Of a stretch of 64,000 nucleotides of DNA, positions 16,415 to 22,344 are shown in pieces (the first letter of the stretch is position 1; every line of letters begins with the position of its first letter). This DNA is from Thermoproteota archaeon (GTDB taxonomy: Archaea > Korarchaeota > Korarchaeia > Korarchaeales > Korarchaeaceae). The notes below the pieces were generated by a model. That model was not told the origin of the DNA. It saw nothing but the letters and a program-made list of their open reading frames with translations, and made no database searches. The position numbers and the translations under genes are program-made. The stretch is from assembly GCA_030130125.1 (NCBI GenBank), contig JARZZM010000001.1, forward strand, positions 6,004-70,003, read 5' to 3'.

Positions 16415-17461
16415 TCAGACCTCCAGCTCATCTAGGAAGTCGGGAATCCAAGAGAACATGTCTTGAGAGACCTTGGCTACCATGTCCACACCAACTACCT
16501 CGCTTGGATAGACTGGGATGTAAGACCTCACTAGGGGCCCAAGGTCCCTCTCTATCTCGGCCATGTAACCGAGCTGCTCCTTGTACTTGTTCCTTACGTA
16601 TTCGTTTGTCGTCGCCTCAGCTATGGCCTTCGGGATAACCTGATTCACGATGACACCGCCAACGGGTATGTCGAAGCCCTTCACCATCTTAATGAATCTC
16701 TTTACCACAGCTATTGGCAGGGACAGGGGCAGTGTGACGAAGAAGAACGCAGTGAGGTCCTCATTCAGCAAGATGTCCTTGACCCTGTTGAACCTGTCCT
16801 GCATCGATAGGAGGTCGGCCATGAGGGGGTCCTTCTTTATCTCCTCCATCACCTTCTCCTTGCGGAAGGAAAGCTTCACCCTGAGTGATAGGGCTTCTTT
16901 CCTGCTCTCGATCATCCTCTCAAGCCAGAGCCCGTAGATCTTGCTCAAACCTATCAGCCTAGCCGCGTTCGCGACTGCAGCGGTATCGAAGACCACTACA
17001 TCATACTCCTCACCCTGCTGGAGAACCACATCCATCATCTTGTCGAACATGGCCGACTCTTGGAACGCCGGGTTCGTGGTGGCTATGTCGATGAAGGGCT
17101 TGGGATCCATGGGTATGTCCGCCCATTTCAGAAACTCCGAAAGCCTCTTCGCTATGTTCTGTTTGTATTTCTCTACCACGTCGTCTATCTCCACCTCTAG
17201 GGCGTGGAGGTTCTGAGCCCCCTCCACAGGCTTTATGACTCCCCCTCTAAGGTCTTGCCCGAAGAGACTTGATAGCGAGTGTACGGGATTGAGAGACACA
17301 AGGAGAGTTCTCTTCCCATCTTTAGCAAACCTGTAAGCCAAACCAGCAGCAGATATTGTCTTTCCGACTCCTCCCTTACCTCCGGTGAAGAGGAACTTGA
17401 GCTTGGGCTTCTGAGAGAGGAACTCTGGCATTAATACCCTCTCCTCCAAGTTCACCACCAT
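16415..17461 (-). CDS. arsA: ArsA/Get3-family ATPase, catalytically degenerate copy
   Basis: Deviant P-loop GGKGGVGKT intact; switch I reads SLNPVHSL (D to N); switch II reads DTAAVAN. Confidence 0.85.
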   Translation of the reverse strand: MVVNLEERVLMPEFLSQKPKLKFLFTGGKGGVGKTISAAGLAYRFAKDGKRTLLVSLNPVHSLSSLFGQDLRGGVIKPVEGAQNLHALEVEIDDVVEKYKQNIAKRLSEFLKWADIPMDPKPFIDIATTNPAFQESAMFDKMMDVVLQQGEEYDVVVFDTAAVANAARLIGLSKIYGLWLERMIESRKEALSLRVKLSFRKEKVMEEIKKDPLMADLLSMQDRFNRVKDILLNEDLTAFFFVTLPLSLPIAVVKRFIKMVKGFDIPVGGVIVNQVIPKAIAEATTNEYVRNKYKEQLGYMAEIERDLGPLVRSYIPVYPSEVVGVDMVAKVSQDMFSWIPDFLDELEV

Positions 17462-18453
17462 AGTAGATCCCTCCTCGAGTGCATTAGGTCCTCAGCGACC
17501 TTCGCAATCATCCCTAACCCCTTTGGCTCCCTATCGTACATAGGAATGAGTGCCGCTACTAAGTCCCCGAATTTATCCCTTATTTCCATAAGATGATTCT
17601 CCTGCATCTCTATCTTCTTCCTCAGGAGTTCGGGAAGGTCGGGCTTGTCCAGCAGGTCCCTCGGGTATATCTGGTTGACCACCACACCGGACATCTCTAT
17701 GTTCAGCTCCCTGAACATCTCCAGCGCGCGCTCCGTGTCCAGTATGGCCATCTTCTCCGGTACCATCACCATAAAGAAGGCCGTCTTCTCAGAGTTTGTC
17801 ATCAGTTCGGTGAAGGTGGTCATCTTCTTTCTTATCTCCTCCAACTCCTTCAGAACCATGTCCTCGGTCTGCATCCCCCCTTTTAGGGTCGCTGCTACTG
17901 CCTCGTACTCGGCGGCCTCCTTTCTGGCCTCAGTTATCTTGTCCACCCAAGCGCTGAGGATCTCCGCCATCGCCACCATCCTGACCCCGTGACCGAATGG
18001 GGGCATGTCGAAGACATAGAGGTCGTACTCGCCTGACGCCACCAGATCTGCCATCGCATCGTAAGTTGCGGATTCGTACATCGCAGGCTCGGCGGAGGTG
18101 CTGTCTATATACTCCTCGATCTCCTTAGGAAGCTCCTCCAGTCCATACATGTCCAGTATCCTTTGCTTGATCTCCTGCTGATACTCTGCTATCTTCCTGT
18201 CAGCATCTATCTCAACCACGTAAAGGTTGGGCGCCACCTCCACTACTCCCTTACCGAAGAGGTCTCTCTCAAAGATGTCGCTGAGGGAAGCTTGGGGGTC
18301 TGTGCTGAAGCAGAGGACCTTCTTTCCCTCATTCACGGCCATATGGTAGCTAAGGGCAGCGCTGCTGGTGGTCTTTCCCAAACCGCCCTTCCCAGCGAAC
18401 ACCACCACCTCTATATTCGGCTTCCTCTCGAAGAATTCAGCTAAACCCACCAT
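17452..18453 (-). CDS. arsA: ArsA/Get3-family ATPase, motif-intact copy
   Basis: GKGGLGKT, STDPQASLSD, DMPPFGH, VPEKMAILDTER. Confidence 0.88.
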   Translation of the reverse strand: MVGLAEFFERKPNIEVVVFAGKGGLGKTTSSAALSYHMAVNEGKKVLCFSTDPQASLSDIFERDLFGKGVVEVAPNLYVVEIDADRKIAEYQQEIKQRILDMYGLEELPKEIEEYIDSTSAEPAMYESATYDAMADLVASGEYDLYVFDMPPFGHGVRMVAMAEILSAWVDKITEARKEAAEYEAVAATLKGGMQTEDMVLKELEEIRKKMTTFTELMTNSEKTAFFMVMVPEKMAILDTERALEMFRELNIEMSGVVVNQIYPRDLLDKPDLPELLRKKIEMQENHLMEIRDKFGDLVAALIPMYDREPKGLGMIAKVAEDLMHSRRDLLWW

Positions 18454-18472
18454 GGAACCACTCTCCCGCTCC

Positions 18473-18787
18473 TTAGCCGCTCAGCAGATCGGTGAAGTCC
18501 CTCTCCCTAAACAACCTCTCCTTCCACGACTTTATGTTGGGAACGACGTAGGGCAGGATCTTCAGCGAGTAGTAGGGTGGGATTATCGGGAAGCCCAGCA
18601 TGTCGCCCAAAGTCATCAGCATGAAGAGGTGCTCCATGTGCATCCTAGTCTTCAGGGCCGCGGTAGCCGCCCCGTGGACAGCGAAGCCATAGAGCACGCC
18701 CTTAAGGGCCTCGGAAATCCCTTCCTCCTTCTCTTTCTTCTCCTTTCTACTAAATAAAGGGATAGAGATCACCTCCCAATCGAACAT
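18473..18787 (-). CDS. Small CstA-associated protein (paralog 1)
   Basis: Lies between cstA and arsA on the same strand; shares an LG.P...L..LPY..P.I..WK.R..RERD.T motif with 20662..20946. Confidence 0.75.
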   Translation of the reverse strand: MFDWEVISIPLFSRKEKKEKEEGISEALKGVLYGFAVHGAATAALKTRMHMEHLFMLMTLGDMLGFPIIPPYYSLKILPYVVPNIKSWKERLFRERDFTDLLSG

Positions 18788-18807
18788 GAAAAAGGGAAAT
18801 AAAAGGT

Positions 18808-20541
18808 TTAGGGAGAGACGGCCTTAGCCTCTACTTCTCCTTTTCTGACCTTAAAGTAGGCGCTCCAGAGGGCGTAGCTCATATAGATGCCCAGCACGAA
18901 GAGTATTATGCCTATGACGAAGAAGAGCGCGTTGAGGGCCCACGCTGCCCCGGGGTACTGGGTCAGCGGCGGCTTGGCCAGCGGCTTCTTTATACCGAAG
19001 GTGCTCAGTCCGAAGGTGTATGTCTCCCAGAGGAGGGCGGAGAGTGTAACAACGGTCATGAACGCGGCTGGCACGGCGGAGTACCACGAGGGCTTGTTCA
19101 TCTTGGCCACGTAGAAGGCCACCAGCGTGAGGGCCATCGCAGCGAGCAGCTGGTTGCTGCCACCGAAGTATATCCACAGGTTTATCCAACTGCCAGTGAG
19201 CGCGAATATGATGGGCAGTATCAGACCTACCACGGTGGCCACATACTTGTTCCCGAGCCACTCCCAAGAGCCCTTGAAGAGCTCGGCGCTGAACACACGC
19301 CAATACCTTGTGACGAGGGCCTGCACGGTTATAGCGTAAATTACGAGGAATATCGAGAAGAATGTCAATAGATACGCCTTGGAAGCATCTCCTCCGAGGA
19401 ACGGGGCGGTCAGCAGTGTGGCTCCGTTCACGAAGGCCGATATCTTACCCTTGGCTATGAGGTCCGGTGAGACCACCATGTAAGCGGCGAGGGCCGATGT
19501 GGCGAGCAGCCCCTCGGTGAGCATCGCCCCAGCTCCCACAGGCCTAGCATCGGTCTCCACATCGAGCTGCTTTCCCGTCGTGGAGGTGCTGACAAGGCTG
19601 TGCCATCCTGATATCGCACCGCATGCTATGGACACGAAGAGTATTGGGAATATTGGACCTACATTCTGGACATACCATCCCTTGAACGCTGGCTGGATGA
19701 GCTTTATGCCAGTGGCAGGAGATATAAGGGCCCCGAATATTATCAGGAGGACCCCTCCTATGGCTGGGAATACTGCCACGAAGTTCATCGGAGTGATGAA
19801 CTTGGGAAGCGGGACTATGGCTCCGACGAAGAGTATTATCGCTAAGATTATCGACCACACCTGAATGGACCACGGGCCGAAGAAGTCCTTCGGCGGCCAA
19901 GCCACGACAGTACCTATCCCAACGCTGATCAACGTCAGCGCTATAGCCAAGGCCGTCACACCGAAGATGTTAGCCTTGTACTTGTAGAGGAGCTCTCCCA
20001 CTATGAGGCCGGTTATTATGATGCCTATGGTGGCAATGAAGGATCCGGGGAAGACGTTCCAGAAGAGCGACACGAGGTAGATGAACACCGCCGAGATTAT
20101 CAGCAGGTAGAAGAGCAAGTAAGCCAGCAGTATCTTCCTTCCCCTCTCTCCTATGGCGTTATAGACGAGAGGACCCATGGATCTGCCCTCGTTCCTGACT
20201 GTGAGCATTATGGTGCTGTAATCTTGGACCCAACCGATGAACATGTTCCCTATCACTATCCAAATGAGCGCTGGCAGCCATCCGTAGGCGACGGCTATGA
20301 ACGGTCCCAAGATGGGCCCCAAGGCAGCTATGCTCTTGAACTGGAATCCATAGAGGACGTATCTACTTACTGGAAAGTACTCAACTCCATCTAAGTACAT
20401 GTGAGCTGGTGTAACTCTCTTCTCGCTCACCTCCCAGATGTGCTCGTCGACCCACTTGGCGTACACGTAGTAGGCGAATCCATAAGCAACTAGGGCCCCG
20501 ATTATCCAGAGGGAGGGGGTCTCCAAGAACGCTACCTGCAT
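18808..20541 (-). CDS. cstA: Carbon starvation protein A family transporter (peptide/pyruvate)
   Basis: TPAH...DG..Y.P, GPILGP, GWLPALIWI, IACGAISGWHSL, GAMLTEG, FGGSNQLLA; many TM helices. Confidence 0.93.
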   Translation of the reverse strand: MQVAFLETPSLWIIGALVAYGFAYYVYAKWVDEHIWEVSEKRVTPAHMYLDGVEYFPVSRYVLYGFQFKSIAALGPILGPFIAVAYGWLPALIWIVIGNMFIGWVQDYSTIMLTVRNEGRSMGPLVYNAIGERGRKILLAYLLFYLLIISAVFIYLVSLFWNVFPGSFIATIGIIITGLIVGELLYKYKANIFGVTALAIALTLISVGIGTVVAWPPKDFFGPWSIQVWSIILAIILFVGAIVPLPKFITPMNFVAVFPAIGGVLLIIFGALISPATGIKLIQPAFKGWYVQNVGPIFPILFVSIACGAISGWHSLVSTSTTGKQLDVETDARPVGAGAMLTEGLLATSALAAYMVVSPDLIAKGKISAFVNGATLLTAPFLGGDASKAYLLTFFSIFLVIYAITVQALVTRYWRVFSAELFKGSWEWLGNKYVATVVGLILPIIFALTGSWINLWIYFGGSNQLLAAMALTLVAFYVAKMNKPSWYSAVPAAFMTVVTLSALLWETYTFGLSTFGIKKPLAKPPLTQYPGAAWALNALFFVIGIILFVLGIYMSYALWSAYFKVRKGEVEAKAVSP

Positions 20542-20628
20542 ATTTACCCCCCTGAAAGTGACCTTTAAGTAGGTAGGGCTAAGGTTAGCTAATTAACTTT
20601 GCTATATACGTCTTTTGCTTATAGTATG

Positions 20629-20640
20629 GAAAGATCTTTC
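20629..20640. promoter_or_regulatory. Perfect 12-bp palindrome GAAAGATCTTTC upstream of cstA; candidate operator
   Basis: Exact self-complementary sequence about 90 bp upstream of the cstA ATG, in an AT-rich gap. Confidence 0.4.
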
Positions 20641-20661
20641 ACAAATTGAGTGAATGGATTT

Positions 20662-20946
20662 TCATACGGTCTCCGGGACCTCCTCCGTTAAGTCCCTCTC
20701 CCTGAGCTGCCTCTGCTTCCAACCCTCTATCTCGGGCAACAGATAAGGGAGGAGCCTCAACATGATGGGTGTGGTCATAAGCGGGAGGCCCAGCAGTTCC
20801 CCCATGATCAGGAGGTTTACCGCGTCCCTCAGCTTAGCCGCCTCCTTTCTCGTCTCCCAATATAGGTCGAAGTAGAAGAGCCCGAAGAGGAACTCCTTGG
20901 CAGCTCTCTTAAACTCCTCCCATCTCATGGCAGAGAACACCCACAT
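20662..20946 (-). CDS. Small CstA-associated protein (paralog 2)
   Basis: KEFLFGLF...LIMGELLGLPLMTTPIMLRLLPYLLPEIEGWKQRQLRERDLT is homologous to 18473..18787. Confidence 0.75.
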   Translation of the reverse strand: MWVFSAMRWEEFKRAAKEFLFGLFYFDLYWETRKEAAKLRDAVNLLIMGELLGLPLMTTPIMLRLLPYLLPEIEGWKQRQLRERDLTEEVPETV

Positions 20947-21382
20947 CTTCGAGTATCTTCATCACATCTAGATCTGACGGGCCCTTAAACATTATCTGAA
21001 TGGTCCTATCCGTGACATCGCAGTAATGGACCGTGAACAGATGGTTCTTACTCCTACCCGTTATGATCCCCCTCCCCACGTAGTACGCGGCGGGATGGCC
21101 CCCCATCTCCGTTTCACCAGTCTTCTCTATCCTGATCCTAGGTCTCAGATCCTTCCTGCCAGGTCTGACTACGATCCTCATGTCCACGGTGTAGCTTGGG
21201 GTCGCTAGTACATGATAGCTCTCCCCGTAGGTCACGTAAGCTAGGTGGCCCCTCCTCTCGTACTGAGTGATGTCCGATCCGTAGGCCGTGGCCATGACCT
21301 CCGCCTCATCCGGAACGGTGAGTGTCAGGAAGTCCACCGTACCGAAGAGGGAACTGACTGCCCTTATGTGTGCCCGCTTCAT
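20909..21382 (-). CDS. Hypothetical protein
   Basis: 157-aa ORF overlapping the next co-oriented gene; no family recognised. Confidence 0.6.
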   Translation of the reverse strand: MKRAHIRAVSSLFGTVDFLTLTVPDEAEVMATAYGSDITQYERRGHLAYVTYGESYHVLATPSYTVDMRIVVRPGRKDLRPRIRIEKTGETEMGGHPAAYYVGRGIITGRSKNHLFTVHYCDVTDRTIQIMFKGPSDLDVMKILEDVGVLCHEMGGV

Positions 21383-21429
21383 CGCTCTAGCCTCATCGCG
21401 GGTAGGCTTTATCCTTTACTCGATGCACT

Positions 21430-21939
21430 TTGGGATGTATGTACGAAATCGAGGTAGTGATAGCAATATCGGCCGTGCTAGCTGGCTGGTATTTCTTGGG
21501 CTCCTACCAAAATAGGAAGCTAACCTCCAAAGTGTGGACCGCAGTGCTGGAACAGATGGAGGAATTCGCCTCCGAGATTACTGTCAGGGAGCTTGGGGGC
21601 TCAGCCTTCATAGCCGTGGCTAAGGGAACTCGATTCCCATTCAGAAGGATTGAGATGGCCTATACGAGCCTTCCGAGGGAGATCTTGATCAATTACCTCA
21701 TATCGAAGGCGATGGGGAGGAAGGACCTCCTCACAGTGGTGGCCGATTTCAACACCACCCCAAAGGGCGAGAGAACCCTGAGGGACTTCCCAGATCTGGC
21801 AGTGGATGCGCTCTCCCTAAGGATTCAGTGGAGGAGCCCCAACCTCAGGATAATCATGTCGGCTGAGCAGGCAATGAACGGCTCCCTTAAGAGGGTCCTA
21901 TCAGCGGTCAGGACGGTATGCAGCTCGGGCCTGTGCTGA
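21430..21939 (+). CDS. N-terminally anchored membrane protein, weakly CCDC47/DUF1682-like
   Basis: TM helix followed by YFLGSYQNRKLTSKVW and LPREILINYL...GRKDLL; family call is pattern recognition only. Confidence 0.55.
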   Translation: MGCMYEIEVVIAISAVLAGWYFLGSYQNRKLTSKVWTAVLEQMEEFASEITVRELGGSAFIAVAKGTRFPFRRIEMAYTSLPREILINYLISKAMGRKDLLTVVADFNTTPKGERTLRDFPDLAVDALSLRIQWRSPNLRIIMSAEQAMNGSLKRVLSAVRTVCSSGLC

Positions 21940-22344
21940 TCATTCGAGCTCAGGTATGAAGACCCTAACAGAACCCCTATCCTCATAGGAGCTGAAAATC
22001 TCTCCTGCTTTCCTTATCCCGCTCAAGATAGATCCGAAGAACTCATCAGCGCTCATTCCCAATCGATCAGCCGACTTGGCGACCTCCCCAGCTCCCCTGA
22101 CCCAGAAGGTGACCATGCCGGTGTAGATGCCCAGCCTCAGGTGGGTGGGCACGGGACTCCCCATGGGGAGGAACGCGTAACCCTCGGCCCTCCTGCTGGG
22201 CAGAAACCCCAGTTTCTCCATTTCTCCCACTAACTTCGATATCAGACCCTCCAGATCCTTGGGATCTAGGTAAGCGTACATCTCCACTTTTATGAGGAAG
22301 CTCTCGTAATCCATCTCAATCTTGGATAGGGATGGGACCACCAT
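21940..22344 (-). CDS. Hypothetical protein
   Basis: 134-aa ORF 11 bp downstream of ubiA on the same strand. Confidence 0.6.
   Translation of the reverse strand: MVVPSLSKIEMDYESFLIKVEMYAYLDPKDLEGLISKLVGEMEKLGFLPSRRAEGYAFLPMGSPVPTHLRLGIYTGMVTFWVRGAGEVAKSADRLGMSADEFFGSILSGIRKAGEIFSSYEDRGSVRVFIPELE

Follow-up and report, generated by a model that had tools for sequence, protein, structure and literature searches.

CstA-family carriers have been found encoded next to homologues of ArsA, the ATPase of the arsenical pump. Castillo and Saier (Int J Microbiol 2010:187373, PMC2963123) described cstA-cstX-(cstY)-arsA-homologue clusters in 26 SEED genomes, in which CstA was associated with single-domain ArsA homologues of ~330 amino acids (aa), often encoded as adjacent pairs sharing 25-31% identity, with CstX of ~90 aa, present as two paralogues in two archaea, and, in archaea, with CstY of ~210 aa possessing a single transmembrane segment (TMS). 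The trees were congruent, ars genes were not linked, and the ArsA homologue was proposed to energise CstA, with CstX as linker; one of the operons is present in Thermococcus kodakarensis (PMC2963123). The locus analysed here lies in a 64,000-nucleotide (nt) stretch, hereafter the window, of contig JARZZM010000001.1 (assembly GCA_030130125.1) from a Thermoproteota archaeon, the genome of which is 96% complete and 1.5 Mb in size. It is almost certainly a complete copy of a widespread cstA-cstX-cstY-arsA-homologue module. By analogy with ArsAB, its products may form one membrane complex centred on CstA, an ATP-coupled holo-transporter; we give this tentative reading a probability of about 45%.

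The module here comprised seven linked genes, encoding CstA, CstXa, CstXb, the ATPases P1 and P2, CstY and Z, whereas an eighth, thioredoxin-like member was encoded elsewhere in the genome. ORF (open reading frame) calling in the window agreed with the initial annotation, which had described six co-oriented genes, on the minus strand, and one divergent gene for an anchored protein, on the plus strand:

20909-21382, minus strand: ORF for Z, an all-beta Cys/His protein of 157 aa, initially termed hypothetical
20662-20946, minus strand: CstXb (small protein B), 94 aa, a paralogue of CstXa; its gene overlaps that of Z by 38 nt
20542-20661, minus strand: AT-rich intergenic region of 120 nt between cstXb and cstA, read from the sequence
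18808-20541, minus strand: cstA, for a CstA-family permease of 577 aa (PF02554, E 4e-105)
18473-18787, minus strand: CstXa (small protein A), 104 aa, DUF7990 (PF25952), following cstA after a gap of 20 nt
17452-18453, minus strand: P1 (ATPase 1), 333 aa, ArsA/Get3 fold (PF02374, E 4e-67), following cstXa after a gap of 19 nt
16415-17461, minus strand: P2 (ATPase 2), 348 aa, ArsA/Get3 fold (PF02374, E 4e-56), overlapping P1 by 10 nt
21430-21939, plus strand: divergent ORF for CstY, 169 aa, with one N-terminal hydrophobic helix and a predicted CCDC47 (DUF1682) fold

All the features of the 2010 cluster were present in the window, that is, CstA, two flanking CstX, adjacent ATPases, a single-TMS CstY and the absence of ars genes. 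The locus adds one more member to that cluster type and nothing essential differs. The initial annotation had presented it as a candidate new system, which does not hold, since the association, the occurrence of two cstX paralogues and the idea that an ArsA homologue energises CstA were already published (PMC2963123). Beyond that work are Z, the thioredoxin-like member, the occurrence of CstY in bacteria, the asymmetry of the ATPases, the CCDC47-like fold of CstY, and doubt as to whether CstX is a single-TMS protein.

To determine linkage, 78 loci were taken from species-representative genomes and their six-frame ORFs were searched with the window proteins. Counts were based on those 29 loci in which cstXa was flanked by 6 kb or more on either side; these loci span Thermoproteota, Thermoplasmata, Bathyarchaeia, Geothermarchaeota, Bacillota, Anaerolineae and Armatimonadota (at least six phyla). 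P1 and P2 were each encoded in 28 of these loci, CstA in 27, at least two CstX in 27, Z in 24, CstY in 20, and h122, a thioredoxin-like protein of ~125 aa, in 15. Where no cstA adjoined the CstX locus, it was encoded elsewhere in the genome (5/5 genomes). Linkage of the module is far beyond chance. A lack of conserved co-occurrence had been set beforehand as a refuting condition, and it clearly did not apply, as the genes co-occur and are syntenic across archaea and bacteria.

The same pattern was observed within the phylum of the window, of which 43 genomes were compared. CstX (never in fewer than two copies), CstA and P1 + P2 were present in an identical set of 19 and missing from the same 24, with Z in 18 of the 19 module-bearing genomes; the genomes counted are related and hence not independent, yet none was discordant, and the module is therefore an accessory, all-or-none unit. 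Within the genus, the split was 10/20. The gene order varied by lineage, being Y/Z-Xb-A-Xa-P1-P2 here, A-Xa-P1-P2-Z/Y/Xb in Thermoplasmata and Armatimonadota, A-Xa-P1-P2-Xb-Z-h122 in Sulfolobales, and Xa-Xa-P1-P2/A/Y/Z in Bathyarchaeia; this variation speaks for selection acting on co-inheritance and not for operon inertia. On contigs of an Armatimonadota bacterium and a soil archaeon, the arrangement was CstA-DUF7990-ArsA-ArsA-160-aa protein, with a second DUF7990 protein and a ~210-aa protein within 4 kb. The window proteins shared 71% (P1), 68% (P2), 67% (CstXa), 56% (CstA), 49% (CstXb) and 31% (CstY) identity with those of an Armatimonadota bacterium. The core is 56-71% identical across domains, a degree of conservation that few other uncharacterised gene sets common to archaea and bacteria reach, and such high identity suggests many fixed interfaces.

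The proteins predicted for P1 and P2 were 32% identical to each other (E 7e-53) and scored 221.5 and 186.1 bits, respectively, with TIGR00345 (GET3_arsA_TRC40; cut-off 135). P1 possessed the full catalytic set, GKGGLGKT, STDPQASLSD and FDMPPFGHG. These motifs were near-invariant across orthologues, and the few variants (such as GKGGVGKT in locus L058, or VDPQASLSD with YDLVPLGHA in L074, L081 and L082) retained the switch I Asp, the residue that activates water in Get3 and ArsA. P2 also had an intact P-loop, GKGGVGKT in all orthologues but that of L058 (GKGGVGKS). In its switch I, SLNPVHS, Asn replaces the catalytic Asp, as in ~70 orthologues, the sole exception with Asp being L058; its switch II was degenerate, FDTAAVANA, the Gly-His being gone, with the variants FDCAAVANA in Bathyarchaeia-type loci and L059, and FDTAPTANA in L074, L081 and L082. 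The conserved asymmetry of the motifs speaks for an obligate heterodimer that has a single hydrolytic site, in which, judged from the sequences, P1 is probably the hydrolysing partner and P2 probably the one that binds ATP without hydrolysing it.

ArsAB resembles the module in the genetic coupling of a secondary carrier to a P-loop ATPase of the ArsA family, the two nucleotide sites of which are unequal. The two differ in that the ATPase halves of the module are encoded by separate genes, the metalloid Cys triad is missing, and DTAPTGH is altered to DMPPFGH in P1 and DTAAVAN in P2; moreover, the carrier is CstA, ArsB/Acr3/ArsD/ArsR are absent, and the module encodes four additional proteins that are small or accessory. 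To our knowledge, ArsAB is the only precedent for a transporter energised by an ArsA-family ATPase. The best solved relatives of P1 were the archaeal Get3 structures 3zq6 (E 1e-55) and 3ug6 (E 2e-52), followed by ArsA and eukaryotic Get3. P1 and P2 are also similar in size to Get3/TRC40, the family whose TIGR00345 cut-off they pass. However, Get3 is a homodimer, whereas P1-P2 is a putative obligate heterodimer with one dead site and no CxxC zinc clasp, and neither a Get1/Get2-type receptor nor a canonical tail-anchored client is present in the module, the candidate client being CstX. P1 contained one cysteine and P2 none; therefore, neither the ArsA Cys113/172/422 site nor the Get3 CxxC is present.

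Another pair of adjacent, interacting ATPases of the Get3/ArsA fold without a link to arsenic, BagA/BagB (Rv3679/Rv3680), reportedly occurs in Mycobacterium tuberculosis; we know of no linkage of BagAB to cstA. P1 and P2 were not assigned to this pair, as they scored 46.7 and 58.7 bits with the BagA model (cut-off 400) and 39.3 and 38.6 bits with the BagB model (cut-off 521). The genome encoded three ArsA-like proteins, namely P1, P2 and a 297-aa protein sharing 24% identity with P1. The gene for the latter (C14:21797-22669; L087:4798-5691), unlinked to the module and with the motifs TTDPTPTLSD and WDTPASSGS, may encode the housekeeping archaeal Get3-type protein.

The 577-aa permease was the only CstA of the genome. 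It is of a short type, 124 aa shorter than the E. coli CstA of 701 aa, with which it shared 32% identity over 365 aa; no solved structure was found for the CstA family. CstXa and CstXb were 32% identical (E 2e-14). Homologues of CstXa numbered more than 1000, all with PF25952 (DUF7990), and shared 65-75% identity in Bathyarchaeia, Bacillota, Armatimonadota and Thermoplasmata-like metagenome-assembled genomes. CstXb belongs to a distinct subfamily, as ancient as that of CstXa, marked by an FDLY motif and a C-terminal EAPExH/EVPETV, and orthologues of this subtype were present in Armatimonadota and Thermoplasmata-type loci. CstX was also related to NF041419 of NCBIfam (cory-CC-star), with E-values down to 4e-12 at scores under the cut-off.

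In CstXa, a tail rich in K/E is accompanied by a short hydrophobic helix in which an Asp is conserved, by a hydrophobic stretch rich in Pro, PPYYSLKILPYVVPNI, and by a charged C-terminus, SWKERLFRERDFTD. The 19-residue Kyte-Doolittle maximum was 1.28 in CstXa and about 1.3-1.7 for CstX; the hydrophobic stretch, with its conserved Asp or Glu, leads into a segment of five prolines, and its helix-compatible part is ~15 residues. From these properties of the sequence, CstX is unlikely to be a canonical single-TMS protein. Beyond CstA and both ATPases, the other four module proteins had no match in the local Pfam library, which lacks PF25952; as the Pfam scan of CstX gave no match of any kind, Asterix-type included, CstX was rejected as an Asterix homologue.

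In E. coli, genes for CstA-family carriers are likewise followed by a small-protein gene, as in CstA-YbdD and BtsT-YjiX, and deletion of ybdD phenocopies that of cstA for pyruvate uptake (PMC5847655); therefore, CstA carriers can depend on a small partner. The parallel drawn initially with btsT-yjiX-yjiA held as an analogy, but not as homology. Between CstX (DUF7990) and YbdD/YjiX (DUF466, PF04328), the hhalign probability was 0.3% and no Pfam cross-match was obtained at E<=10, nor did YbdD match NF041419. Suggestive motifs are common to the two groups, namely FRER near the C-terminus and H/Y-x-E-H-M/L, and an insertion of ~35 residues may mask a relationship. YbdD ends in RCC-COOH, whereas the CstX of the module does not; YjiA belongs to a different NTPase family, the G3E GTPases, in place of the ArsA-type ATPases of the module.

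The window CstY was homologous to proteins of 211-217 aa encoded in loci L004 and L001. Its AlphaFold2 model (predicted local distance difference test score, pLDDT, 95.5) had a long N-terminal helix with the transmembrane segment, followed by an alpha/beta domain; the transmembrane helix is followed by NR+ (positive-inside), and the domain is therefore placed in the cytoplasm. When 350,542 PDB chains were searched with Foldseek, the top three matches were chains of ribosome-bound translocons of the endoplasmic reticulum (ER), 7tm3_4 (E 1.8e-4, query template modelling score, TMq, 0.53), 9i78_4 (E 3.2e-4, TMq 0.51) and 6w6l_7 (E 0.16), and all others had E >0.3. Chain 9i78_4 is annotated as CCDC47, and we infer the same identity for 7tm3_4 and 6w6l_7. 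PF07946 (CCDC47) was the only Pfam family matched recurrently by CstY family members, by 13/29 (best E 5e-4) in one set and 13/119 (best E 3.6e-6) in another; scores seen with coordinates were 11-20 bits, below the gathering threshold of 27.7. The alignment of the L068 CstY spanned positions 4-227 of the 326 in this profile, and the window CstY itself gave no PF07946 match. Against PDB sequences, the sole match of the 29-sequence CstY profile was CCDC47 (9i78_4; E 1.9), over the transmembrane segment and a juxtamembrane motif (G..NRR.AKK), and the 119-sequence profile and the single CstY sequence retrieved nothing relevant. In a profile search of 1.84 billion representatives, the best 150 matches were all proteins of prokaryotic size.

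The evidence from fold and sequence together makes homology of CstY and CCDC47 rather likely. Common to both are a transmembrane helix, a juxtamembrane motif of basic character (G...NRR.AKK-like) and an alpha/beta domain in the cytoplasm. CstY is, however, less than half as long (169-220 aa versus roughly 455-480 aa); it ends after the globular domain and lacks the luminal acidic domain and the ribosome-reaching C-terminal coiled coil of CCDC47, and its genomic partners are a transporter and ATPases rather than Sec61. That CstY is homologous to CCDC47 and, in addition, has a chaperone or insertion function exerted with P1-P2 and CstX on multipass CstA appears doubtful.

Alignment of the Z orthologues revealed invariant His96, Cys121 and Arg126 as well as a Cys-His pair, located at the extreme C-terminus in most of them. 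The AlphaFold2 model of Z (pLDDT 91.5) was all-beta and gave weak Foldseek matches only (E 1e-3 to 3e-2, template modelling score 0.41-0.51), to the Mog1/PsbP/DcrB/LpqN group and to the Eag chaperones (DUF1795), whose ligands are transmembrane helices of type VI secretion system effectors. These matches are too weak for family assignment. Members of the h122 family, ~125 aa in length, had thioredoxin-like matches and a C..CC motif. The h122 gene of the window's own genome (C12:5943-6305) adjoined a HepT/MNT toxin-antitoxin pair and a Prok-JAB gene, a context that gave no functional clue.

The initial annotation had proposed an energising or chaperoning module for CstA, and this is kept as the best reading. 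In the mechanism that we favour, P1-P2 would be an ArsA-like, pseudo-symmetric heterodimer with its sole hydrolytic site in P1, P2 binding nucleotide without hydrolysis. CstXa and CstXb, one per ATPase subunit, would tie the dimer to the cytoplasmic face of CstA, making contact via the hydrophobic Pro-rich segment and the charged C-terminal helix; CstY would serve as a scaffold in the membrane, and Z would be peripheral. Binding and hydrolysis of ATP would drive or gate the uptake of the CstA substrate, which by family analogy may be pyruvate or small peptides, and a proton-coupled carrier would thereby become an ATP-coupled importer of high affinity, in the way that ArsA acts on ArsB. The analysis shows gene content, conservation, co-occurrence, the asymmetry of the motifs and the predicted folds; the physical contacts, stoichiometry, substrate and direction of coupling in this scheme are those that we infer.

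Several observations are consistent with this mechanism. The module is linked to the carrier in a strictly all-or-none manner. The halves A1 and A2 of ArsA are unequal, and the asymmetry of P1 and P2 mirrors them; as far as we know, ArsA is the only member of its family that energises a secondary carrier. Two ATPase paralogues match two CstX paralogues. Conservation is higher in the ATPases and CstXa than in CstA, which would be expected of a machine in which many interfaces are fixed. Already in 2010, this coupling had been proposed from co-evolution trees (PMC2963123). Other points weigh against an ATP-coupled complex. No experimental follow-up on the module, neither interaction nor ATP-dependent transport, was found in the literature. 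The E. coli carriers BtsT and CstA work without such ATPases, so the family needs no ATP coupling, and we know of no structure that resolves the contact between ArsA and ArsB. Furthermore, the nearest characterised relatives of three accessory proteins, Get3, CCDC47 and, weakly, Eag, handle transmembrane helices in membrane-protein biogenesis, which favours an assembly system as the alternative.

Such a system, dedicated to the biogenesis of CstA and resembling the GET (guided tail-anchored protein entry) and PAT (protein associated with translocon) machineries, is the alternative that survives best, although we consider it unlikely. P1-P2 would capture the hydrophobic segment of CstX post-translationally, CstX being too short for co-translational targeting, and deliver CstX to the membrane, where the CCDC47-like CstY would serve as receptor and scaffold, with Z as a holdase; CstX-CstY would then chaperone the folding or assembly of multipass CstA, the ATPases acting transiently and remaining outside the working transporter. 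Archaeal Get3 proteins are indeed the closest solved relatives of P1, but the CxxC zinc motif is missing from P1 and P2, and one of their sites is dead. CstY is CCDC47-like by fold and weakly by sequence, yet has neither the ribosome-binding coiled coil nor the luminal domain, and no Asterix-like partner was detected in the Pfam scan of CstX. The CstX segment, moderately hydrophobic and with a conserved acidic residue near the C-terminus, is of the kind that such chaperones handle; with five prolines and a helix-compatible part of ~15 residues, it is nevertheless not a canonical tail anchor. The fold matches of Z include the helix-binding Eag/DUF1795 chaperones, but at template modelling scores of at most 0.51. 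In addition, the conservation of P1 and P2 exceeds that of CstA, an unusual property for a chaperone that acts transiently, and we know of no prokaryotic precedent for a seven-gene machine serving one transporter. The ATP-coupled holo-transporter is favoured over an assembly system.

An improbable alternative is that the module senses or handles a thiol-, redox- or metal-reactive cargo, in which case the Cys/His site of Z and the thioredoxin-like eighth protein would bind a metal or reactive substrate moved by CstA, and the ATPase pair would be a switch of the metallochaperone type, comparable to ArsD-ArsA or to the G3E GTPase YjiA encoded beside btsT. The invariant His96, Cys121 and C-terminal Cys-His of Z agree with this, as do the C..CC motif, thioredoxin-like matches and linkage of h122 (15/29 loci) and the Cys-Cys-COOH ends of YbdD/YjiX, which are unrelated, and, going by the name, of the cory-CC-star (NF041419) relatives of CstX. 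However, conserved cysteines are absent from P1, P2, CstXa and CstXb, constancy among the members is lowest for Z and h122, and metal-related neighbours were not recurrent.

That P1 and P2 are a split ArsA driving arsenite/antimonite efflux via a partner encoded elsewhere is hardly credible, since, against the assignment of both ATPases to the ArsA/GET3 family by Pfam and NCBIfam and one marginal, cut-off-level ArsB-family match on contig C26, unlinked to the module, stand the missing metalloid-binding cysteines, scores of 94.6 and 76.7 bits with the ArsA equivalog model TIGR04291 (cut-off 650), the absence of Acr3, ArsD and glutaredoxin-type ArsC from the 96%-complete genome in profile searches, and linkage in every locus to cstA and never to ars genes (also PMC2963123). 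The view taken initially, that the locus carries no arsenic genes, that its ATPases lack the ArsA metalloid cysteines and that the module is unrelated to arsenic resistance, was thus borne out.

If the ATPase pair energises CstA, the module would follow ArsAB as the second example of a secondary carrier turned into a primary pump by an ATPase of the ArsA family, and this would explain the uptake of scarce carbon by peptide- or pyruvate-scavenging thermophiles. If it is instead an assembly device, Get3- and CCDC47-type membrane-protein biogenesis would have prokaryotic roots. Prokaryotes are said to lack PAT components (PMC9630114), and homology of CstY and CCDC47 combined with a chaperone function would contradict this published absence; two eukaryotic ER biogenesis factors, Get3 and a subunit of the PAT complex, would then already have cooperated in archaea and bacteria. 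Under either reading, CstY would be a small, thermostable and genetically accessible model of the CCDC47 fold. In control searches, Haloferax volcanii gave matches to the CstX-related, CstA and ArsA family models, which bear on presence only. Thermococcus kodakarensis and H. volcanii are tractable hosts.

With regard to transcription, the region at 20542-20661 holds a TATA-like sequence, gtatatagc, and a G-rich ribosome-binding site directly 5' of the cstA ATG, and is on this basis the probable promoter of cstA-cstXa-P1-P2. Because this 120-nt AT-rich gap parts cstXb from cstA, the co-oriented genes probably form two transcription units. The true start of cstY is likely the ATG at 21439. Abutting the end of cstY and convergent with it is a 134-aa ORF (21940-22344, minus strand) without a Pfam or NCBIfam match, which was kept only in the closest relatives (L007 and L013); it may have joined the module in this lineage or may be a neighbour without relation to it. 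Directly downstream of P2 (15453-16360, minus strand) are a nicotinamidase/isochorismatase-family gene (PF00857, E 4e-40) and a gene for a TIGR04076-family protein; these neighbours were not recurrent in other module loci.

Some minor observations were made in the other genomes. In G028, a genome of the same genus, two fragmentary CstY frames (C18:19116-19557) were the only trace of the module, the other genes being absent, which looks like a relic after module loss. Thermoplasmata-type loci encoded a multi-helix membrane protein of ~205 aa 3' of cstXb (L004:11859-12476, and at the same position in L017, L037, L039-L041, L044, L049 and L084); it had no Pfam match and may be a lineage-specific extra member. 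The module proteins of L031 (JBLNEM010000383.1), labelled 'MAG: Mycobacterium leprae', resembled the Bacillota/Symbiobacteriaceae type, and the record is probably mislabelled or the bin contaminated. Single in-frame stops were observed in module genes of three related genomes, TGA in cstXb (G022:C49:5826-6092) and TAA and TAG in P2 (G006:C49:4917-5912 and G012:C14:234275-235279), which could be sequencing errors, pseudogenes or recoding.

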